Notes: generated from the letters alone by a model not told the origin. DNA of 64,000 bases from a virus (IMGVR_UViG_3300037504_000149), one strand, 5' to 3'; shown: positions 14,001 to 45,983, counted from the stretch's first letter. A program made the numbers and translations.

Positions 14001-14209
14001 TCTACCCCCCCCCTGCTCCTTCCCCTGCTCCCGTATTCCTCGCGCTATTATAATTCTACATACCTACCATAAAAGAGTTTAACATAAAACTTCCCTGAAG
14101 TCAATACCTATTTTATTCCATTTTATCCTTGACAAGTTTTCAATCCATATGGTATACTGCCTTCAGAAGATAAAAACGCCCCGGAGGGGGCATAACCTGG
14201 AAGGGAACG

Positions 14210-14410
14210 ATGGATAAGGAAAACTTTGATGTATTTTATGCGGCGGCGCAAGCTGTAGCAACACTTAAATCAGCTCGTGCCATTGCCTGTGTCGTTGACG
14301 CTGCTGTCCGTACAAAAGAAACACGGACAGCGCTGAATAAAATCTGTGATGCGCTGAAAACGATGGAATCGGTGCGAAACAGTAACCTAGAAACAATATA
14401 TTCTCGCTAA
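14210..14410 (+). CDS. cassette cargo, small helical protein
   Basis: Own promoter (TTGACA 14129), RBS and terminator. Confidence 0.75.
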   Translation: MDKENFDVFYAAAQAVATLKSARAIACVVDAAVRTKETRTALNKICDALKTMESVRNSNLETIYSR

Positions 14411-14422
14411 ACATACTACACC

Positions 14423-14450
14423 GCCCCGCTGGAATCCAGCGGGGCTTTTC
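14423..14450 (+). terminator. Rho-independent terminator (representative copy of the module)
   Basis: 10 bp stem GCCCCGCTGG/CCAGCGGGGC followed by a T-tract. Confidence 0.9.
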
Positions 14451-14655
14451 TTTATCCTGGATATTCGATTATTCTTATATCCTATTTTATATATTCCCCT
14501 TAGTCTTCCCCTTCAAACATAATGCTAACATAAAACTTACCTGAAGTCAATACCTATTTTATTCAATTTTATCCTTGACAATCTAGGAACTAGTATGATA
14601 TAATAGCTTTACAAGATTAGAAACGCCCGCAAGGCGGGCATAACAGGGAGGATAT

Positions 14656-14838
14656 ATGGAACGGACAACCTATATTGTTATCGGCGGCCAGCAGGTCGGC
14701 ATCACTGGCAACCCCAACGATGACCCGCTGTCCGCCCCGGCGGCCAAGGCGGCGCTGAAGGACTATCGCGCCCGCACCGGCCGGACCGCTGTCCCTATCC
14801 GGCTGGCCAATGGGACGGTATTCTCACGGGGATTCTAG
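14656..14838 (+). CDS. cassette cargo, hypothetical 60 aa
   Basis: Own promoter (14575), GGGAGG RBS and terminator. Confidence 0.75.
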   Translation: MERTTYIVIGGQQVGITGNPNDDPLSAPAAKAALKDYRARTGRTAVPIRLANGTVFSRGF

Positions 14839-15076
14839 GTTATTACGCCCCGCTGGAATCCAGCGGGGCTTTTCTATACCTTGTATATTCGATTATTCTT
14901 ATATCCTAATATATTCCCCTTAGTCTCCCCCTTCAAACATAATGCTAACATAAAACTTCCCTGAAGTCAAGACCTATTTTATTCCATTTTATACTTGACA
15001 ATCTAGGAATCCATATGGTATACTACTTTCAGAAGATGAAAACGCCCCGGAGGGGCAAAACTAGGGAGGGGAAAGA

Positions 15077-15328
15077 ATGGAGTATTTATTGCGTCTGACC
15101 CGCGCCCGATATAATGATATACCGATAGATAACATCGGGCAAGCTACGCGAATAAAGGTCAAGAGTATACAAGCCGCTAAGATAGCGGCAACAAGATGGG
15201 CGGAGCAAGTGGCAACACCAAACAAGCCCTATTGTGTCGTTATCTACACAATCGAGGGTACACCTATAATAAGAAAACACAGCTTTACTAAGAAATGGGC
15301 GAAAGCGGGAGAATTCTACTGTACCTAG
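15077..15328 (+). CDS. cassette cargo, basic hypothetical protein
   Basis: Own promoter (14995), RBS and terminator. Confidence 0.75.
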   Translation: MEYLLRLTRARYNDIPIDNIGQATRIKVKSIQAAKIAATRWAEQVATPNKPYCVVIYTIEGTPIIRKHSFTKKWAKAGEFYCT

Positions 15329-15563
15329 CATTTACCCCCGCTGGATTCCAGCGGGGCTTTTCTTTATCCTGGATATTCGATTATTCTTATATCCTAATAT
15401 ATTCCCCTTACTCTCCCCTTCAAACATAATGCTAACATAAAACTTCCCTGAAGTCAAGACCTATTTTATTCCATTTTATACTTGACACTCTAGGAACTAG
15501 TATGGTATACTACCTTCAGAAGATGAAAAGCCCGCATAGCGGGCATAACAGGAAGGGAAACGG

Positions 15564-15896
15564 ATGATTTACGAAGTTATTACTCGCGATGAACTCTATC
15601 ACCGTCTGAAGGGGTATAACGACGTATTCTCGTATGAGGGGGCTCGGATAATATACGATTATATTACCGAACTCGGCGATACGGAGCTAGACGTTCCCGA
15701 CATTCACGGCGGGTTTACGGAGTATTCCGATGCTGAGGAAGCGGCAGAGGACATTCTCCCCCCTGATGAGGTCGAGGAAATGCGGAAAGAATTCGCGGAA
15801 TTCCCCGGCCTTGATGATGAATGCTGGAAGGCGCTGGAGCGGGCCGGTGAAACAGTGCTGGGCTCGGCGTCCGGGCCTGTCATTATCGCGGAATAG
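15564..15896 (+). CDS. cassette cargo, acidic phage hypothetical protein
   Basis: FSYEG..I.DY..E....ELDV motif familiar from phage proteins; own promoter (15482). Confidence 0.75.
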   Translation: MIYEVITRDELYHRLKGYNDVFSYEGARIIYDYITELGDTELDVPDIHGGFTEYSDAEEAAEDILPPDEVEEMRKEFAEFPGLDDECWKALERAGETVLGSASGPVIIAE

Positions 15897-16130
15897 TTTT
15901 ATCGCCCCGCTGGTATTCCAGCGGGGCTTTTCTATACCTTGTATATTCGATTATTCTTATATATATTCCCCTTACACTTCCCCTTCAAACATAATGCTAA
16001 CATAAAAGTTCCCTGAAGTCAATACCTATTTTATTTAATTTTACACTTGACAATCATTTAATCCGTATGATATAATACCTTTACAAGATTGAAACGCCCC
16101 TACAGGGGCATAACAGGAAAGGGAAGGAAT

Positions 16131-16568
16131 ATGATTTACACCAATCTTGATGAAGCACGCGCCGCGAAGGCGGCGAGCGTAGCAAAGGCGCGAGAGCTGG
16201 AGTCCCGCGCTATCGAAGGTGAGGGGCCTACTTCCACCGAAGCCGAAGAAGTCAGGCATGAACGGTGGATCAAGGAAAACACCCTGGTTGTTACCAGGCA
16301 CGCAGGCCTGGTCGACTACATCAAAGAAGAGTTCATTTATCCCGCGTACCTGGCATCAGACGTGGTATTCTCTCACGTTGAGCAAAAGGACGTGGAGGGG
16401 AAGCACGTGGTTGGCATTTTGCCGCTCCACCTGGCCGCATTGGCAGATAAGGTGACGGTCATCCCCCTGAACCTGACCCCGGCGGATCGAGGTCAGGAAC
16501 TTTCCGCCGAACGGGTGCGGGAAGTGGCCGGTGACCCGGTAACCTACCGGGTCGAGCAGGTGAATTAG
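16131..16568 (+). CDS. Csx16-like protein (putative cyclic oligoadenylate ring nuclease)
   Basis: TLVVTRHAG...HV...VVGILPLHLAA...LNLTPADRGQELSAE..R...YRVE matches the Csx16 (VVA1548) pattern. Confidence 0.72.
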   Translation: MIYTNLDEARAAKAASVAKARELESRAIEGEGPTSTEAEEVRHERWIKENTLVVTRHAGLVDYIKEEFIYPAYLASDVVFSHVEQKDVEGKHVVGILPLHLAALADKVTVIPLNLTPADRGQELSAERVREVAGDPVTYRVEQVN

Positions 16569-16903
16569 CTCTCACTGCCCCGCTGGATTCCAGCGGGGCT
16601 TTTCTATACCTTGTATATTCGATTATTCTTATATCCTATTATATATATATATTACCCTAGTCTCCCCCTTCAAACATAATGCTAACATAAAACTTCCCTG
16701 AAGTCAAGAACTATTTTAATGTATCTAAAACAAGGCAGCACAAGGGTATATTTTAGTCGCCCGTAGAAGTGATATAACGGGCCGTAGATGGCCGTAAAGG
16801 GTGGCAGAGTGGTATAGTATACTTATCTATTGAACGGCCTTAAAATCGCCCTACGGGCATTATATGGAATATCAGGAAAGTTTAATATAGATAAAGTTTT
16901 CTC

Positions 16904-17140
16904 TTGACAGGGAGCAAAGGTTATGATATACTTCCCCCGTAAGATTGAGAAATAGATACCTGAAACGCCCCCCAGAGGGGGCATAAAGGAAAGGGGAATA
17001 AATGAAGGGTTGACAGCGATGGGGAAGTATGATATACTTCCCCCGTAAGATTGAAGATGTAGTAAACGCCCCTACGGGGCACAAAGGAAAGGGGCTAAAA
17101 TTAGGGGTTGACAAGGGTGGGGAAGTATGATATAATCCCC
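16904..17140 (+). promoter_or_regulatory. three stacked promoter/hairpin/RBS heads, the first two without cargo
   Basis: TTGACA at 16904, 17009 and 17108; the first head's RBS leads only to ATG AAG GGT TGA. Confidence 0.8.
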
Positions 17141-17569
17141 TTGATGAGCGTTACCTATAACACAGTATCATTTATTCACTAGAGTTAACAAGGGAGGGAG
17201 GCGCAGGATGAAACACTATCAGCGTAACATCCTGCTGGAACCCGGTTAAATCATCGGGGCGGAAAGTAAGTCGGCCCCGCCCCGGCTTTCCCGGGCCTTA
17301 ACATGGGATACACCGTAGACCTATTGTGATCAACGGTAAATCCGTTGTGACGCTCCCCCGGTCCCTAAACTATGGGGACCGGGGATTTTAGTATAGTTAG
17401 TTTATATTATAAGACTGCCGGACTGCCCACAAAAGAGTTTAACATAAAAGTTACCTGAAGTCAATACCTATTTTATTTAATTTTACGCTTGACATTCTAG
17501 GAACTAGTATGATATAATAGCTTTACAAGATTAAAACGCCCCGGAACGGGGCATAACAGGGAGGGAACG

Positions 17570-17782
17570 GTGTTTCACTTAAAATTCTACGACGGGACGA
17601 CCGGGAGTGCCGGTTGTTACGGGAGTTTTGATACGCTCGCCGACGCTATGGCTGAGTGTGATACCGTCCCCGGTTGCTCCGGGGAGTCAGGGTATGAGTC
17701 ATCCTCGTTGTATATCGAGGATGACACAGGAGAAGTTGTCGCATCCCTAGGCGCATATTGCGCCGGTTGGGTTGTGGGCTAG
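17570..17782 (+). CDS. cassette cargo, acidic hypothetical protein
   Basis: Promoter 17489, AGGAGG RBS, GTG start and terminator. Confidence 0.7.
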   Translation: MFHLKFYDGTTGSAGCYGSFDTLADAMAECDTVPGCSGESGYESSSLYIEDDTGEVVASLGAYCAGWVVG

Positions 17783-17967
17783 ATTTACGGCCCCGCTGAT
17801 ATTCTCAGCGGGGCTTTTCTTTTACCTTGTATATTCGATTATTCTTATATATATCCCCTTACTCTCCCCCTTCAAACATAATGATAACATAAAACTTTCC
17901 TGAAGTCAACCCCTAAATTTCCCTATTAAATCCTTGACATCTATCTGCTGTTTTGATACAATACTCG

Positions 17968-18140
17968 TCGAGGTGGCAGCCGCAGTAGGCGCAGGGAAGT
18001 TGAGACCCCTAGACGTAGGACTCCGGTCCCTGTATCCCCGCCGATCACGGGGTGCATGCGGGTGTCGGGATTGTCCGGGCAATCCCCAATCCCGCCCACC
18101 TTACATGAAACGGCCCCCGCTGGATTCCAGCGGGGCTTTT
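17968..18140 (+). ncRNA. candidate small structured RNA carried as cassette cargo
   Basis: TTGACA-N17-TACAAT at 17934, no RBS or credible ORF, GC stems (GCAGGGA/TCCCTGT, CCCCG/CGGGG, CGGGATTG/CAATCCCG), then the module terminator. Confidence 0.5.
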
Positions 18141-18348
18141 CTTTTACCTTGTATATTCGATTATTCTTATATCCTAATATATTCCCCTTAGTCTCCCCCT
18201 TCAAACATAATGCTAACATAAAAGTTACCTGAAGTCAATACCTATTTTATTCAATTTTATACTTGACAAGCTATAAACTAGTATGATATACTATCCCCAC
18301 AAGATTAGAAACGCCCCCGGAGGGGGCATAACAAAGGAAGGGGAAGAA

Positions 18349-18861
18349 ATGGGCTGGGATGGTAGGTATATGGATAACACTGTGAAAGCCCGTCAACGAG
18401 TGATGATGGAGACTGTCGGACTGATAGACTTGTCGGTCCGGGGCAATGAAGGGTACGCTGCAGTGAAACATCCCGATATGGAGGCCGTGTTTTGTATGAT
18501 CTTCATTTTCCGGTATTCTGAAGGGGAATTGTGTACAAAGACCTGTACGGAGCTTGACGGCCCGTTTTGTTGGAATTGCCCGCAACGTATTATGAAACAG
18601 CTCACTGCGCCGCTGAACGAGCGGGCGGCGGATTGGCGCGATGCTTGTCGGCTCGCTGCGAAGTTGCGCAAAGCGCGTTATGTTTATCTGGAGCGGTCGC
18701 CGCATGGCACTGACATACGCTTAGTGGAAAAGGTGGCGAATGCTCGGAGTGTTTACCGTGAGATGTATACCGGTGAACTATGGCGGCTGCGCGTTAACAC
18801 TATGATGCACTACGGCGCTCGTCCAGTGGATAAGGACGAAGCCGAGGCGATGTTACGTTAG
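18349..18861 (+). CDS. DUF6927-like mobile-element protein
   Basis: E.DGPFCWNCPQRIMKQLT...AADWRDAC motif. Confidence 0.6.
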   Translation: MGWDGRYMDNTVKARQRVMMETVGLIDLSVRGNEGYAAVKHPDMEAVFCMIFIFRYSEGELCTKTCTELDGPFCWNCPQRIMKQLTAPLNERAADWRDACRLAAKLRKARYVYLERSPHGTDIRLVEKVANARSVYREMYTGELWRLRVNTMMHYGARPVDKDEAEAMLR

Positions 18862-19088
18862 ATTTACCGCCCCGCTGGAATCCAGCGGGGCTTTTCTTTA
18901 TCCTTTATATTCAATTATTCTTATATATATATTCCCCTTAGTCTTCCCCTTCAAACATAATGCTAACATAAAACTTCCCTGAAGTCAATACCTATTTTAT
19001 CCAATTTTACACTTGACAAGCTATAAACTAGTATGATATAATAGCTTTACAAGATTGATAGCAGTTAACATTAAAAGGGGAGGGCTCC

Positions 19089-31544: not shown

Positions 31545-31929
31545 GGGGCTGATAAGGGTTCGACGTGCGAGTAAAAGTGAGGTAGCATCCCGTGGTTGGT
31601 CTCTAGGCCACGTAAAAAAGAGACCAAACAACAACAGCCGAAAATGCTGTTCCCTTGGCTGCTTAAAAAGCCGCTCCTCTATGGAGCTAGGCTCGTAGCC
31701 CGCCCCCGGAAAGGTTTCTCTGCACCTGACTGGATAAGGCGTCAAAAAGCAGGGGTCCGACTTGGAGTTACCTAATCGCTCCTAAAAGGACTACAGAGTA
31801 ATTAGGTAGGGTGCGCGAGACTGTGCCGTATCAGCCGGACCGCACCGACACGACATGATACGGCTATGGATGTAGATGCCGAAGCGGCACTTGACACGGA
31901 CGCGGGTTCGATTCCCGCCAGCTCCACCA
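31545..31929 (+). ncRNA. ssrA: tmRNA; tag (A)AENAVPLAA*
   Basis: 5' GGGGCTG pairs with 3' CAGCTCC-ACCA including a G3:U pair; T-arm GGGTTCGATTCCC; tag ORF 31637-31666; promoter TTGACA-N17-TATCAT at 31501. Confidence 0.95.
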
Positions 31930-37182: not shown

Positions 37183-37398
37183 ATGAGACACCACTTCAAA
37201 CAACCCCAGGATAAGGATGGTAAACCTATCCACATTCAGCAGAGAGTTGCAGTAGACTCTACTCCTGAAGACGTTTGGAAAGGTGGTTTCTCAGGCACGG
37301 TCATTAGAATTATCAGTACCTTTAAGGTTACGGTATCTGATTTGAAGGGTCATGCCTTTGATGTACCTGCACACAAGACAAAAGTTTTGGAAGGTTAA
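37183..37398 (+). CDS. small SH3-like barrel protein
   Basis: DKDGKPIHI...FSGTV...V.DLKGHAFDV. Confidence 0.55.
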   Translation: MRHHFKQPQDKDGKPIHIQQRVAVDSTPEDVWKGGFSGTVIRIISTFKVTVSDLKGHAFDVPAHKTKVLEG

Positions 37399-37399
37399 A

Positions 37400-38140
37400 A
37401 TGAATGATGCTCTAGGTGATCGTATGAAGAAGTATGAGAATACTACAAGGTATTACCTACCTCCCCGTACACCTATCATTATTAGAGTAGATGGTAAAGC
37501 CTTTCACACTTATACTAAAAATTGTATAGAACCATTCAGTAATGTTCTAATAAACATAATGAATGAAGTTGGGTTACATCTTTGTGAGAATATCCAGGGT
37601 GCTGAACTAGCATATATTCAAAGTGATGAAATTTCTATATTAGTTCATTACTATAAAAAGTATACTTCATCTGCATGGTTCGATAACAACTTGCAGAAGC
37701 TGGTAAGTGTTTCAGCTAGTCTAGCTACAGAAGCATTCATTAACAGTTTGATGCGGCGTCCCATCGCTTGGCAGTCACAGTTTGGTGGTAAAACACCTAA
37801 CTTTGATAGCCGAGCTTTTTGTATACCAGTAGCGGACGTATGCAATTACTTTATCTGGAGGCAGAAAGATTGGGAACGTAATAGTTTGCAACTACTAGCA
37901 AGAAGTTTATACTCTCATAACGAATTACACGCTAAGAAGCGTGATGAATTGCACGATATGTGTATAGCTAAAGGTAATAACTGGAACCAGCTACCAGGGT
38001 ATTATAAACGAGGTAGATGTGTCAAGTTACTTTGTAATACTGATACTCCTGTTACTAAACGAGAGTGGGTTGTAGAAACTCCTCCCATATTTACTAAAGA
38101 TAGAGATTACGTTGAAGAACATCTGTTTGTTGAACAATGA
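37400..38140 (+). CDS. thg1: tRNA(His) guanylyltransferase Thg1-like protein
   Basis: LGDRMKKYE, IRVDGKAFH, YIQSDEIS, FDSR, NYFIWRQ.D..RNS. Confidence 0.92.
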   Translation: MNDALGDRMKKYENTTRYYLPPRTPIIIRVDGKAFHTYTKNCIEPFSNVLINIMNEVGLHLCENIQGAELAYIQSDEISILVHYYKKYTSSAWFDNNLQKLVSVSASLATEAFINSLMRRPIAWQSQFGGKTPNFDSRAFCIPVADVCNYFIWRQKDWERNSLQLLARSLYSHNELHAKKRDELHDMCIAKGNNWNQLPGYYKRGRCVKLLCNTDTPVTKREWVVETPPIFTKDRDYVEEHLFVEQ

Positions 38141-38150
38141 GAGGTATAGT

Positions 38151-38747
38151 ATGTATAATGATGATGGCAAGTTCTGGGTAGTAGCTATTGTCTTATTAGT
38201 AGTTGGACTCGGTATGGGGATAGTTTTACTCAATATAAATATATTCAGGTATGTTCATACCATAAAGAAAGATATTACTGATGAGTCTATAGAAATGGAA
38301 TTTATTAGAACCAAGAATGGGGGTGACCGCTGTGGTAGCTGTTACTTTGGTTGGGATATTTCTTTCCATGATTTATGGTATGCTACTGATATTAGAGAAG
38401 TTATAGATTACCAACACCACAAAAATTATTGTACACTACACGGTATAGAATTTATTTTTGAAGTTGATGGATTCGATGATGTAGATGAGTGGTATATTTG
38501 GTATTCTCCTAAAGTATCATCAGACCGGGTGTGGCTTAAAGCTGATGAATTATCGAACGATATATGGACAACTATATCAAGTTTAGATATATTAGCAAAA
38601 TATGCTATGGTCTATTCTGATAGACTGTACGGCGAGTTCCAAGTATTAGGTATTTCACGTATCGGACAGAACGGTGCTATAACGAAAATATATTATACTA
38701 ATGTTTACTGGATTAAAATTAGTTTTGGAAATACAAAGTTTCCTTGA
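38151..38747 (+). CDS. membrane-anchored hypothetical protein
   Basis: N-terminal TM helix; GAGG RBS. Confidence 0.6.
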   Translation: MYNDDGKFWVVAIVLLVVGLGMGIVLLNINIFRYVHTIKKDITDESIEMEFIRTKNGGDRCGSCYFGWDISFHDLWYATDIREVIDYQHHKNYCTLHGIEFIFEVDGFDDVDEWYIWYSPKVSSDRVWLKADELSNDIWTTISSLDILAKYAMVYSDRLYGEFQVLGISRIGQNGAITKIYYTNVYWIKISFGNTKFP

Positions 38748-38777
38748 AAAATCACGCTCGTTATGTTATACTGTATT

Positions 38778-39305
38778 CGTACTCGAAGAGATTTCGACCC
38801 GTGCCAGCGTGTCAAAGCTTCGAGTCGTTCGCCCTCCAAGGAACAAGAAATTACTTGGAACGGGAACTGGTGACGGCAACAAGGTACTCTCACAAACCAT
38901 AGAGGACTTGAGTCACTGGGACTGCTTCCCACCAGCGGTTTAATTATTTCTCTACAGGTTTAAAACGTACAACGAACTGCCGTAAGAGTAACGCGCTTGT
39001 GTCCAAAACGCTCCAAAGGTGTAGCGCCTGTGGAACACCAAGGTAGGGTGAGGGGCTTAGTAGGAACGTCTCACCATCTTAAGGTCTGGAAAAAGTTGGT
39101 GCGTGTGTGGTTCTGCTATCACTTGGGGTTGACCACCTCATTAAGGCCAGAAGCGACTGGCTAAAGAGGCTCTAGTAGTCACGTACATACTCATGCGTGA
39201 AAGCCCAGATCTTCCTGCCACGACCCTAATTTGTGAGTAAGCGCGAGTGGGCGCATTAACTCCCGTAGACTTTATGTGGCGTCAGGGAGCTGGAAGGTCG
39301 ATTAC
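38778..39305 (+). ncRNA. candidate large structured ncRNA (~530 nt)
   Basis: Promoter TTGAAA-N17-TATACT at 38744-38772; no credible ORF; many long-range complementary segments. Confidence 0.7.
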
Positions 39306-39328
39306 TGCTTGAACTTATAAGGAGAGAT

Positions 39329-39496
39329 ATACAAGGTTCATCTTTTGAAACTCGGACACAATGTCCGAAGTGTGGTTCATGGTGTTATGGGCGCACAGAT
39401 ATTGATGCTATGGGACAAGAACATACTACTGGTTACCGTTGCGAACACTGTGGGCACATTTGGGGAATGACGATTTGTGTACAGATGTTTAACTGA
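39329..39496 (+). CDS. small zinc-ribbon protein (ATA start), missed by the ORF track
   Basis: IQGSSFETRTQCPKCGS...YRCEHCGHIW; AAGGAG upstream. Confidence 0.55.
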   Translation: MQGSSFETRTQCPKCGSWCYGRTDIDAMGQEHTTGYRCEHCGHIWGMTICVQMFN

Positions 39497-39504
39497 GGTG
39501 TTAC

Positions 39505-40125
39505 ATGAAATGTCATCACTTACAATTATATACGGTATATCGTAAATACTACCCCCAACAACATTTTGGTAAAGCAGCACTAGTAAAACTACTCTATTTT
39601 GCTCAAGAAGTTGAAGGCGCTAAGTTAGGTTATAGTTTTGATCTAGAAACATTTGGACCATTCACACAAACAATACTTGACGAATTAGATGATTTGGAGT
39701 GTAAAGGCACTGCTATAGTTAAATATGTTAATGATCATTATGTCATTGACTATTACGATAAGCCAGATTTTATACTACCTGAAATTGAACAAGCTGTTAA
39801 AAAGTTTGGTTATCTGTGTGGTTTTGACATGGAAACATTAGCTACTATACACTTCTTGAGAGATACAAAACCTACCAGAGAAAGTATGTATATTGCAGTG
39901 CATGGTATTAAACCCAGAGTGAATCGTACAACCTTTGATAAGATGTATCGTTTAGCTGTACAGTTTGGTTTAATTCCTGATAGTACATCTCCCGTTTCCA
40001 TTGATTATAAAAAGCGCAAAGAAGCTAAACTATTAGAAGACGATCTAGATTGGCGTACTGAAGAAGAGAAAATACAGGATTATGAAGAGGCTTATATACA
40101 AGTACATAACCGAAAGAGGATATGA
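39505..40125 (+). CDS. DarG C-terminal/SocA(Panacea)-like antitoxin domain protein
   Basis: GKAALVKLLYFAQE...GYSF.L..FGPF...DELDDL...METLATIHF. Confidence 0.55.
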   Translation: MKCHHLQLYTVYRKYYPQQHFGKAALVKLLYFAQEVEGAKLGYSFDLETFGPFTQTILDELDDLECKGTAIVKYVNDHYVIDYYDKPDFILPEIEQAVKKFGYLCGFDMETLATIHFLRDTKPTRESMYIAVHGIKPRVNRTTFDKMYRLAVQFGLIPDSTSPVSIDYKKRKEAKLLEDDLDWRTEEEKIQDYEEAYIQVHNRKRI

Positions 40126-43296: not shown

Positions 43297-43331
43297 AACT
43301 TGAAATTGAAGCTTCGATGTGTTATACTGTT

Positions 43332-43590
43332 TTCAGTGGCTGGCGCGGTGGTGACGACTAACCTCCAGTCATTGAACGGGGATGGGACGCCTCCCCACAT
43401 ACGAGACCCCTCTTGGTAGGTTTTTTGGTAAAAGACCGAGGTAAGGGCTTTCTCCTACAACACTCAAGACGATCCTGGATGAGAGTGTAAACAAGAGTGG
43501 AGTCTGCTACCTGACGAGGTAGTCACAAAGTAGGGTAGCTCCCTCGCCTCCCCCTAGAGTACGGCCATATTCTAGGGGGAGGAGAATAAA
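43332..43590 (+). ncRNA. candidate structured RNA or long leader upstream of the Cas-like gene
   Basis: Promoter TTGAAA-N17-TATACT at 43300; at least 5 stems including 43548-43581. Confidence 0.55.
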
Positions 43591-43637
43591 AGAGAAGACT
43601 ATACAAGGACGGGAAACTGCTACTGAAAGATCGGACA

Positions 43638-44876
43638 ATGGATCTAGTTGAAAAAATTAGGCTGTTCCCTACCGAGGAACAAAACAAGCAACTCCGAGAG
43701 TTGGCTGCGTTCTGTCGTGACGCGGCAAACTACATCTCGGAGTTTATCTATACACATCGTTTGCGCTCCAAGGGTGTAGGGACGCTCTACAAACCGGATT
43801 GGGAAACGCGAGCTGCAAAAGATGATCCAGACGCCGTTTCACTTTATAAGGTATTGTGCAGTGCTTTCGATTTTAGTGGCAAGAAGTCTCTAGCCACCGC
43901 GATTATTCAAAGGGTAAAATCATCCTATAAGTCCACCAACGCACGAAACATCACACAAGGGGATGCCTTTTATCGGGCAGGTAAGGCGAAGTATCGTCAA
44001 TTGAAGAAAGATGGAATAAAAGGGGAAACACTTAAGGCTGCTGCTAAGCTTACTCAAGAAGAAAAGAACGAGATAGCTGAACGGTATGGCATGACAAAGC
44101 CGCTCAGCTTCAATCCCTTTATTCCTACCCTAAAACAGAATACTAAATGGAAGGAAAACACAGTCAGTTTCTTCGGTATCTCAAGTATACCTTTTGCGTC
44201 TCGACTGGAAAACATAGAGTCTCGTGACGCGATTGTTAAGCTCAACAAAAACAACAAGTGGCTGCTACACCTTCCCGTAGAGACCTCCGAAGAGGAAGTT
44301 TACGAACCTGCTGGTTGGTTGGGAGTAGATGTCGGACTGGCAAACCTGGCTGTCACCTCTGAGGGCACGGTCTATTATGGCGGTGAGAACCGTCGCCGTG
44401 GTGAAACACGGTTCAAGCAACGTCAGCGGATGCAGAAGAAGGGTACTAAATCCGCGAAGCGTAGACTGAAAGCTCTTTCCGAGAAAGAAACAAGGTGGCG
44501 AAAAAATCTCTGCCACGAGATCAGCACCGCTATCGTCCGACGTGCGAAAGAGCTTCGCTATGGTGTAGCGGTAGAAACGCTGAAAAACATTCGGCGAAAC
44601 GTGAGACAATCGAGGAAGCTGAATCGTCAGCTTCACGGTAGTTTTCCTTTTGGTATGCTTCTTTCCATGCTAGAATATAAAGCAGAGAAAGAGGGTGTAC
44701 CATTCCAGAAAGTGGATCCTAAAAATACCTCCAGGACGTGTCCAAAGTGTGAATATGTAGCAGAGAAAAACAGAATTAGCCGTACACACTTTAAATGTGT
44801 GGAATGCGGCTACAAAAACTACGCAGACCATGTGGCGGCAACTAACATTTCTCGGATAGCAGAAACCGGGATATAA
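43638..44876 (+). CDS. CRISPR-associated TnpB/Cas12f-like RNA-guided nuclease
   Basis: RuvC-I GVDVG, RuvC-II VAVETL, zinc finger CPKC...CVEC, RuvC-III ADHVAATNI; adjacent to the array; no tnpA. Confidence 0.9.
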   Translation: MDLVEKIRLFPTEEQNKQLRELAAFCRDAANYISEFIYTHRLRSKGVGTLYKPDWETRAAKDDPDAVSLYKVLCSAFDFSGKKSLATAIIQRVKSSYKSTNARNITQGDAFYRAGKAKYRQLKKDGIKGETLKAAAKLTQEEKNEIAERYGMTKPLSFNPFIPTLKQNTKWKENTVSFFGISSIPFASRLENIESRDAIVKLNKNNKWLLHLPVETSEEEVYEPAGWLGVDVGLANLAVTSEGTVYYGGENRRRGETRFKQRQRMQKKGTKSAKRRLKALSEKETRWRKNLCHEISTAIVRRAKELRYGVAVETLKNIRRNVRQSRKLNRQLHGSFPFGMLLSMLEYKAEKEGVPFQKVDPKNTSRTCPKCEYVAEKNRISRTHFKCVECGYKNYADHVAATNISRIAETGI

Positions 44877-45166: not shown

Positions 45167-45983
45167 GTTTTAACGACTTCTGCGGTGTGCTTGTGCATCT
45201 CCCTGGTAGCTTCTTGGGGTTTTTGTATCGTTTCGGAAGTTTTAACGACTTCTGCGGTGTGCTTGTGCATCTCCCTACAAAATACATCATCGGTTGGCCT
45301 AAGTTGTCCTTCTGTTTTAACGACTTCTGCGGTGTGCTTGTGCATCTCCCTATATAGAAATCATGAACTCAGGAGGTTCACTATGAGTTTTAACGACTTC
45401 TGCGGTGTGCTTGTGCATCTCCCATACTGCATCGACCAGACACGCCTACCCTATCATTAGTTTTAACGACTTCTGCGGTGTGCTTGTGCATCTCCCTATT
45501 GGTAGTGAGACAGTGGACAAGGCCATAAATGGCCGTTTTAACGACTTCTGCGGTGTGCTTGTGCATCTCCCATACCATTGAGCCTGATCTGGTAGTGCTA
45601 TGCCTCATTGTTTTAACGACTTCTGCGGTGTGCTTGTGCATCTCCCAGCATAGTAAACCTCCTGAGTTCATGATTTCTATATAGTTTTAACGACTTCTGC
45701 GGTGTGTTCGTGCATCTCCCCTGCTGCTACATCGGTCCTAACACAGATCAAAGGGAGTTTTAACGACTTCTGCGGTGTGTTCGTGCATCTCCCCTGCTGC
45801 TACATCGGTCCTAACACAGATCAAAGGGAGTTTTAACGACTTCTGCGGTGTGTTCGTGCATCTTCCTATAGTAGAGAGTAGAAAGTTACATACATGGTCT
45901 CGGGTTTTAACGACTTCTGTGGTGTGTTTGTGCATCTCCCACCCTTCGCCATACACCTTCCGCAAAGTGTTTGTGTATCTCCC
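45167..45983 (+). CRISPR. CRISPR array: 11 repeats of 37 bp, 10 spacers (35-38 bp), degenerate terminal repeat
   Basis: GTTTTAACGACTTCTGCGGTGTGCTTGTGCATCTCCC at 45167, 45239, 45314, 45387, 45460, 45535, 45610, 45684, 45757, 45830, 45904; remnant ends at 45983. Confidence 0.98.

Follow-up and report, generated by a model that had tools for sequence, protein, structure and literature searches.

ROOL and GOLLD are large ornate RNAs of phages and prophages that are represented by Rfam families and have been studied by cryo-EM (PMC12286853). The locus that we describe here, a gene-free stretch of about 510 bases in the genome of a large uncultivated phage, resembles them as a non-coding element of a phage that spans several hundred nucleotides, exceeds its surroundings in G+C content and has no assigned function; the genomic setting is similar as well, with both a tRNA and a tmRNA gene present. 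However, it matches neither the ROOL nor the GOLLD model at the thresholds tried, it displays no sign of a single compact fold (whole-length folding z about 0, neutrally evolving middle), and, unlike a broad family, it is known from two near-identical phages only. The segment 38779–38952 can also be compared with the terminated small RNAs of phages and bacteria, with which it shares a strong promoter, a stable 5′ hairpin, additional hairpins behind it, and a last hairpin (H4) followed by a U-rich tail. Unlike in these small RNAs, the terminator at H4 is weak when judged against the phage's own terminators, about 340 nt of additional non-coding sequence follow behind it, and no above-chance targets are present in the DNA that we analyzed. 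Long leaders and antitermination RNAs provide a further point of reference. The put RNA of phage HK022, a processive-antitermination RNA, comprises about 70 nt with two stem-loops. As in such systems, our stretch is positioned directly behind a phage promoter and ahead of an operon, it lacks a terminator of its own, and it could influence whichever genes are located downstream; it differs from put in its length of 510 nt and in the lack of any sequence likeness, and an action on RNA polymerase would be conjecture. The closest parallel within the same phage is the leader of a Cas12f/TnpB-like gene (43300–43637, about 300 nt), which has the same promoter subtype, an identical extended −10 region of 11 nt (TGTTATACTGT) and an unusually long, structured non-coding start. 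There is, however, no similarity between the two past the promoter, and the Cas12f/TnpB leader directly abuts its gene.

The DNA that we analyzed, hereafter referred to as the window, has a length of 64,000 nucleotides and is a portion of the phage genome. Its genes are almost all oriented in the + direction, and its G+C content is mosaic, ranging from 30% to 54% when calculated for individual 1-kb windows. DNA of the phage is present in a tidal-flat metagenome, and a relative with about 90% sequence identity is present in hypersaline-lake metagenomes; no close relative was found among 50,697 phage records. One of the proteins encoded in the neighborhood of the stretch is also recorded on a contig of 229,864 bases. 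The phage encodes a tRNA-Trp (673–746) and a tmRNA (31545–31929; 137.9 bits; tag ENAVPLAA). A gene for a Thg1-like enzyme (37352–38140) is located upstream of the stretch, with a 211-aa gene in between, and a Cas12f/TnpB-like gene (43638–44876) accompanied by an array of 37-nt repeats is found downstream. The CRISPR-like array occupies positions 45238–45863, and its 37-nt repeat reads GTTTTAACGACTTCTGCGGTGTGCTTGTGCATCTCCC. The Thg1-like 3′-5′ polymerase exhibits 43–47% identity to homologs in phages of Bacillus, Aeromonas, and Xanthomonas, none of which has a large RNA annotated next to it. The 211-aa membrane protein (38112–38747) evolves rapidly, with 11% of the first and second codon positions changed in comparison with 8% of the 4-fold degenerate sites; its C-terminus is altered in the ~90% identical relative through a 1-nt insertion at position 38731, and just two clusters among 5.8 billion represent it.

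The features of the stretch and of its right-hand border are as follows:

38744–38772, + strand: sigma-70-type extended −10 promoter (TTGAAA, 17 nt, (TG)T-TATACT)
38779–38955, + strand: 5′ domain (about 175 nt), a succession of four hairpins, H1–H4
38779–38826, + strand: hairpin H1, about 18 bp arranged as an imperfect rod, with the lower stem ACTCGAAG/CTTCGAGT and the apical loop GCCA
38832–38864, + strand: hairpin H2, CCC-U-CCAAGG ... CUUGG-A..GGG, with a 13-nt loop
38867–38919, + strand: hairpin H3, composed of CUGGUGAC/GUCACUGG, CAAG/CUUG, and CUCU/AGAG
38920–38952, + strand: hairpin H4, 7–8 bp with 3 G-C pairs, followed by the U-rich tail UUUAAUUAUUUCUCU
38956–39135, + strand: variable middle, which diverges at the neutral rate or faster and contains the majority of the indels
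39136–39289, + strand: 3′ block, conserved in sequence, with three predicted hairpins
39289/39290, no strand: module boundary, at which contigs of the ~90% identical relative are broken in X2 and X5 and bridged in X4
39290–39328, + strand: leader with Shine-Dalgarno sequence (AAGGAG, 39319–39324), identical in the ~90% identical relative beyond the cassette
39329–39496, + strand: gene for a zinc-ribbon protein (CPKC...CEHC) with a weak match to phrog_1467

The gene-free stretch is real and non-coding, and in this respect the preliminary description, which had noted that there is no credible open reading frame, was correct. The longest stop-to-stop frames do not exceed 86 aa, and each of the six frames contains at least two kinds of stop codons; hence, no single stop codon reassignment opens a frame, and an alternative genetic code can be dismissed. 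A pseudogene can be dismissed as well, since a Pfam search with the open reading frame scraps remained without a signal at E ≤ 1. The seven indels that distinguish the ~90% identical relative within the stretch measure +2, −3, −1, −2, −2, −1, and +1 nt, and its substitutions are distributed over the three codon positions in a ratio of 16/11/11, a pattern devoid of periodicity, as opposed to 33/10/6 in the Thg1-like gene. The G+C content amounts to 50% in each third of the stretch; the flanks reach about 35% and the tmRNA of the phage 55%.

The promoter in front of the stretch scores 10 of 12 consensus positions plus the TG of the extended −10 region, and it belongs to a class that is strongly over-represented in the window. 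We defined members of this class by a TTGAMA element, a spacing of 17–18 nt, and a TGNTATAMT element, placed on the coding strand ahead of a transcription unit, and the site at 38744–38772 possesses all of these attributes. The motif TTG-N17-TGNTATANT occurs in 16 exact copies in the window, the site at 38744–38772 among them, whereas 0.23 copies are expected; 11 further exact copies have the N18 variant. Altogether, the class (TTGACA-N17/18-TGNTATAMT) amounts to 27 exact copies, nearly all of them on the + strand (e.g., 14129–19042, 29000, 40404, 41171, 41260, 43300, and 50338). Both hexamers of the promoter at 38744–38772 are identical in the ~90% identical relative, and the spacer carries one change. 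The earlier proposal of a dedicated promoter is thus strengthened by its affiliation with an over-represented motif class (16 vs. 0.23 expected) and by its conservation. For most promoters of the class, an open reading frame preceded by a Shine-Dalgarno sequence begins about 10–140 nt downstream (about 45 nt in the case of the early cassettes), while the distance from 38744–38772 to the first real gene is about 550 nt. The stretch is probably transcribed, with a predicted start site near 38779–38781; the sequencing runs listed as containing it include no RNA run.

Directly behind this predicted start lies the part of the stretch for which a preserved secondary structure can be recognized. H1 (48 nt) is 100% identical in the ~90% identical relative and has a local folding z of −2.9; in the relative, the adjacent pair 38778/38827 is U-A instead of C-G. 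A compensatory change is found in H2, in which 38835 T>C is accompanied by 38859 A>G, so that a U-A pair becomes a C-G pair. In H3, 38868 T>C converts a U.G into a C-G pair, 38911 A>T adds an A-U pair, and the GG>AA change at 38875–38876 is located in an internal loop. All 12 substitutions of the relative in the 5′ domain fall into linkers or loops, form the single compensatory pair (38835/38859), or improve pairing (38868 and 38911). The four-hairpin fold is common to both strains (folding z −1.2 and −3.2), and its consensus energy of −51.7 kcal/mol was not reached by any of 400 null mutants in which the substitutions had been placed randomly (−41.3 ± 3.1 kcal/mol); the SCI is 0.987 in comparison with 0.867 for the null (p = 0.013). 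Counting of pairs, which compares a single ~90% identical relative, yielded one double change among 51 pairs, a value equaled in 157 of 500 shuffles. The placement of the substitutions, in contrast, strongly favors a structured 5′ domain, as the changes in the relative leave its fold intact.

The last hairpin of this domain looks like a weak terminator or attenuator by its sequence. H4 passes a loose terminator scan (38919–38941), but it contains just three G-C pairs, its U run is interrupted, and it is much weaker than the usual G+C-rich terminators of the phage. In the ~90% identical relative, C>T changes at positions 38950 and 38952 extend the T run behind it.

A different picture emerges for the remainder of the stretch. 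With the 4-fold degenerate sites of eight neighboring genes as the neutral reference (13%; 8% to 19% by gene), the divergence from the ~90% identical relative is about 6% in the first 180 nt (38748–38927), 13–18% in the middle (38928–39137), where most indels are found, and 2.6% in the last part (39138–39328). When the neutral rate of the adjacent genes (8–10%) is used instead, the constraint on the 3′ block is only moderate (estimated p about 0.01), and that on the sequence of the 5′ domain is not significant. The middle part is 82–87% identical to the relative, and the structure-preservation test gave no significant result for it (p 0.06–0.29). A few of its helices may nevertheless be kept on the + strand, as suggested by a compensatory change in GGTGT/ACACC (39021 G>A, matched by 39036 C>T) and by C>T changes at 39070 and 39072 in GGTGAG/CTCACC, which retain pairing solely as G.U on this strand. 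The 3′ block differs from the relative at five of 154 positions (96.8% identity) and has a folding z of −1.4 to −1.5; its last helix (CUUCCUGCCACG/UGUGGC..AGGGAG) closes at exactly 39289, and the three substitutions in this hairpin are all on unpaired positions. Over its entire length, the stretch does not fold better than dinucleotide shuffles (MFE z of 0.15 and −0.15). Its SCI and alifold values are better than those of the null (p about 0.013 and 0.027, respectively), and three compensated pairs were scored against one relative only, whereas the null averages 1.2 (p about 0.09). With a single relative that is ~90% identical, covariation analysis is underpowered.

The right edge of the stretch is marked by an insertion. 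One strain of the ~90% identical relative carries additional DNA, a cassette of 1.6 kb or more (59–66% G+C; L002:3320-4099 and L004:1-850), between positions 39289 and 39290. The cassette-bearing contig set is of high depth (k-mer depth about 61), and the RNA module upstream is intact in it; the contig that bridges the junction represents another, uninterrupted strain and stems from a third run, made from the same sample as one of the two cassette runs. The cassette starts with a promoter-like site followed by a gene for a signal-peptide protein, and its far end encodes a Big_5 domain protein whose tail reads ...SWGQTKSL, after which come a terminator, a 3HCDH C-terminal scrap, and an A+T-rich end that resembles a promoter. 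Judged by eye, the promoter-like ends read TTGACA...TATTAA and TTGATA-17-TATATG. The junctions have no core or repeat in common. We considered an attP site at 39289/39290 and rejected it, given the lack of a common core and an insert that apparently consists of one secreted-protein gene and a gene scrap flanked by phage-like promoters. From its sequence, we read the cassette as cargo gained or lost by illegitimate recombination. Since the last helix closes exactly at 39289, the module extends from 38744 to 39289, and 39290–39328 constitute the leader of the zinc-ribbon gene; the edge at 39305 given in the preliminary description is replaced by 39289, the end of the last helix and the point of cassette insertion. 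The terminator scan detected no terminator at 39289 and no strong one anywhere between 38772 and the zinc-ribbon gene. The start codon of this gene (39329) is ATA in the window and in L004 and ATG in L007, and AAGGAG is located 4 nt upstream; its reading frame in the strain studied here lacks ATG, GTG, and TTG codons. The presence of ATG in L007 at the same codon, four bases past AAGGAG, indicates that the zinc-ribbon gene is complete and starts at 39329. For the ATA codon, there are two readings: a start codon of non-canonical type, or a start that has been weakened.

The stretch had initially been viewed as one ornate RNA of about 530 nt closed by an end-to-end pseudoknot. All sequences cited for this model were found where they had been reported: ACTCGAAG (38781–38788) with CTTCGAGT (38818–38825); CTCACAAA (38889–38896) with TTTGTGAG (39230–39237); CGCGCTT (38992–38998) with AAGCGCG (39239–39245); and TCGACC (38794–38799) plus CCAGC (38804–38808) with GCTGG (39289–39293) plus GGTCGA (39296–39301). 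The model built upon them is not supported. The 3′ arm of the pseudoknot (39290–39301) lies past the module edge, within the leader of the next gene, and the nucleotides proposed as its 5′ arm in the loop of H1 are mostly paired in the upper stem of this hairpin. The bipartite match between this loop and the 3′ end recurred in 34 of 2000 shuffles (1.7%) for that single loop and is unremarkable when about 15 loops are taken into account. By estimate, about two 8-mer and eight 7-mer complements are expected by chance within 514 nt, and the two longer helices proposed do not rise above this level: CTCACAAA/TTTGTGAG, an 8-nt complement whose first strand lies within the apical loop of H3, and CGCGCTT/AAGCGCG are both invariant between the window and L002, and the latter helix would be broken by the AAGCACG present in L007. 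The ACGGCA/TGCCGT helix, whose first strand is part of the H3 internal loop, retains just two of six pairs in the ~90% identical relative. With one proposed helix lost, the others at chance level, a whole-length z of about 0, and a neutral middle part, the single 530-nt RNA is not borne out. One might still regard the entire segment 38779–39289 as one large structured phage RNA that founds a new class of ROOL/GOLLD standing, with the middle as a tolerated peripheral domain and a tertiary contact between CUCACAAA in the H3 loop and UUUGUGAG in the 3′ block that would join the two conserved domains, but we consider this improbable. The proposal of a new RNA as such is still plausible, given a non-coding G+C island with a promoter of the phage's own class and a preserved 5′ fold; the one pseudoknot-closed RNA of 530 nt is not supported.

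The stretch belongs to no known RNA family. We ran cmscan against all 4227 families of Rfam 15, including runs at E ≤ 10 on 38500–39600, 38776–38960, and 39120–39330, and neither the stretch nor its two conserved domains produced a match at the gathering score or at E ≤ 10; the corresponding loci of the relatives produced no match either. Membership in ROOL or GOLLD, which the preliminary description had entertained, is thereby rejected, as is an identity as OLE or RNase P RNA, and the earlier statement that RNase P, group I, and group II signatures are absent agrees with this search. The size of about 510 nt, the G+C richness, and a downstream open reading frame without a canonical start codon in this strain would fit a self-splicing group I or II intron or, as far as size and composition are concerned, one of the known large RNAs. 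We nevertheless hold this reading for extremely unlikely: no Rfam model matches even at E ≤ 10 and with short pieces included, the upstream 211-aa gene ends on its own stop codon (38745–38747), a separate Shine-Dalgarno sequence and, in L007, an ATG start codon belong to the downstream gene, and the cassette can separate the stretch from what would be the downstream exon.

Searches for homologs recovered just one relative of the stretch, that of the ~90% identical phage, in the form of three haplotypes. In a distant syntenic relative, whose 206-aa protein is 40% identical, the neighboring genes are kept and other genes occupy the position of the stretch, and nhmmer detected no copy of it in the distant syntenic relatives L005 and L006. 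A blastn search in distant mode against the 50,697 phage records, a search of viral contigs guided by the 206-aa neighbor protein (as a single sequence and as an alignment), and transition-tolerant (R/Y) patterns of four conserved blocks applied to viral, metagenome, and genome contigs all failed to uncover a homolog. A pattern match in a Singulisphaera MAG proved to be a chance hit in G+C-rich coding DNA with no wider similarity by nhmmer. Within the window, there are no paralogs of the stretch and no antisense targets above chance, the longest match being 12 nt. Two guide-type roles were considered and discarded. A bridge RNA or guide RNA, with a loop complementary to the junction, is incompatible with a crossover that lies inside one guide arm, and there is neither a recombinase nearby nor complementarity to the cassette ends; a tracrRNA or anti-repeat is contradicted by the lack of any match or complementarity to the 37-nt CRISPR repeat.

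For the stretch as a whole, we tentatively prefer the view, for which our confidence falls short of an even chance, that 38744–39289 is an independent accessory module, a stand-alone non-coding RNA unit under a promoter of the phage's own. The RNA made from it would be a modular one in three parts: the first 175 nt or so form the structured 5′ domain, a spacer under little constraint takes up about 180 nt, and the 3′ block, conserved in sequence, accounts for about 155 nt. One competitor is a long cis-acting 5′ leader of the zinc-ribbon/206-aa/89-aa operon, in which the 5′ domain and H4 would serve as an attenuator, a stabilizer, or an antitermination element. Read-through is indeed to be expected, as neither a promoter of the class nor a strong terminator intervenes between 38772 and the zinc-ribbon gene; H4 and the U-rich tail behind it resemble a terminator, a likeness that is greater in the ~90% identical relative; the promoter subtype TTGAAA...TGTTATACT also heads the ~300-nt leader of the Cas12f/TnpB-like gene; and conserved sequence extends past 39289 up to the Shine-Dalgarno sequence. 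Against a leader function speak the cassette of at least 1.6 kb with promoter-like ends that splits the module from the zinc-ribbon gene in one strain, the last helix that stops precisely at the insertion point, the distant relative that has the 206-aa gene without the stretch, and the other promoter-to-gene distances in the phage, which are mostly about 10–140 nt. It is because the module remains intact despite the cassette, and because the downstream genes exist without the module, that we favor a stand-alone RNA over a cis-acting leader, which we regard as rather unlikely.

Decayed cargo is a serious rival, albeit also one to which we assign a low probability. Here a foreign payload of higher G+C content, perhaps a former gene, would have left the stretch behind as a remnant in a promoter-headed slot, transcribed but functionless; the conserved blocks would stem from boundary sequences or from strains that recombined recently, and the hairpins would be a matter of composition. 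Many G+C-rich cargo genes do reside behind promoters of the same class in this phage, cassettes including a 3HCDH gene scrap are exchanged at 39289/39290, the middle 180 nt are neutral and indel-rich, the whole-length folding is at chance level (z about 0), the local 4-fold divergence varies from 8% to 19% across neighboring genes as in a mosaic genome, and no similar element was found in the searches of phage records and contig collections. However, a decaying payload would hardly account for the 5′ substitutions that preserve or even strengthen the common fold (0 of 400 random placements), for the strand specificity of the wobble-preserving changes, or for a 48-nt hairpin right behind the promoter that is identical in both strains, and the stretch has neither residual protein similarity nor codon periodicity. 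An element that acts as DNA, either a linker for homologous cassette exchange or a transcription-primed origin akin to ColE1 RNA II or the T4 origins, could explain why conserved sequence flanks the cassette exchange point on both sides and why a promoter is followed by about 500 nt without a terminator. Yet the stretch contains no iterons, no A+T-rich unwinding element, and no skew turn, the junction lacks a common core or repeat, and the G.U-compatible changes indicate constraint at the level of RNA; such an element therefore appears very unlikely.

On the stand-alone reading, a discrete RNA species could arise through partial termination at H4, whose hairpin and U-rich tail could serve as a leaky terminator, and/or through processing. 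Given that there is no strong terminator, transcription probably continues into the zinc-ribbon and 206-aa genes, so that, in this strain, the transcript probably doubles as a leader for the operon behind it. We surmise a role in trans, and not in the regulation of whichever gene lies next to the module; as a guess, it might be a protein-binding or decoy RNA that is made by the host RNA polymerase early in infection. If real, this RNA would be an unrelated addition to the short list of sizeable structured phage RNAs of unassigned function, and promoter-headed slots of the phage would then carry RNA cargo besides protein cargo. It would do so in a phage that also possesses a tmRNA, a tRNA repair enzyme of the Thg1-like type, and a CRISPR system of miniature size with a Cas12f/TnpB-like protein, although the value of the element is limited by its occurrence in two near-identical phages with an uncultured host.

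A minor observation concerns the promoter class at another position in the window. Three class promoters are arranged in tandem, about 100 nt apart, at 16904–17489, and 430–630 nt without a Shine-Dalgarno-led open reading frame lie behind them. This region may encode small RNAs or represent empty cassette heads.
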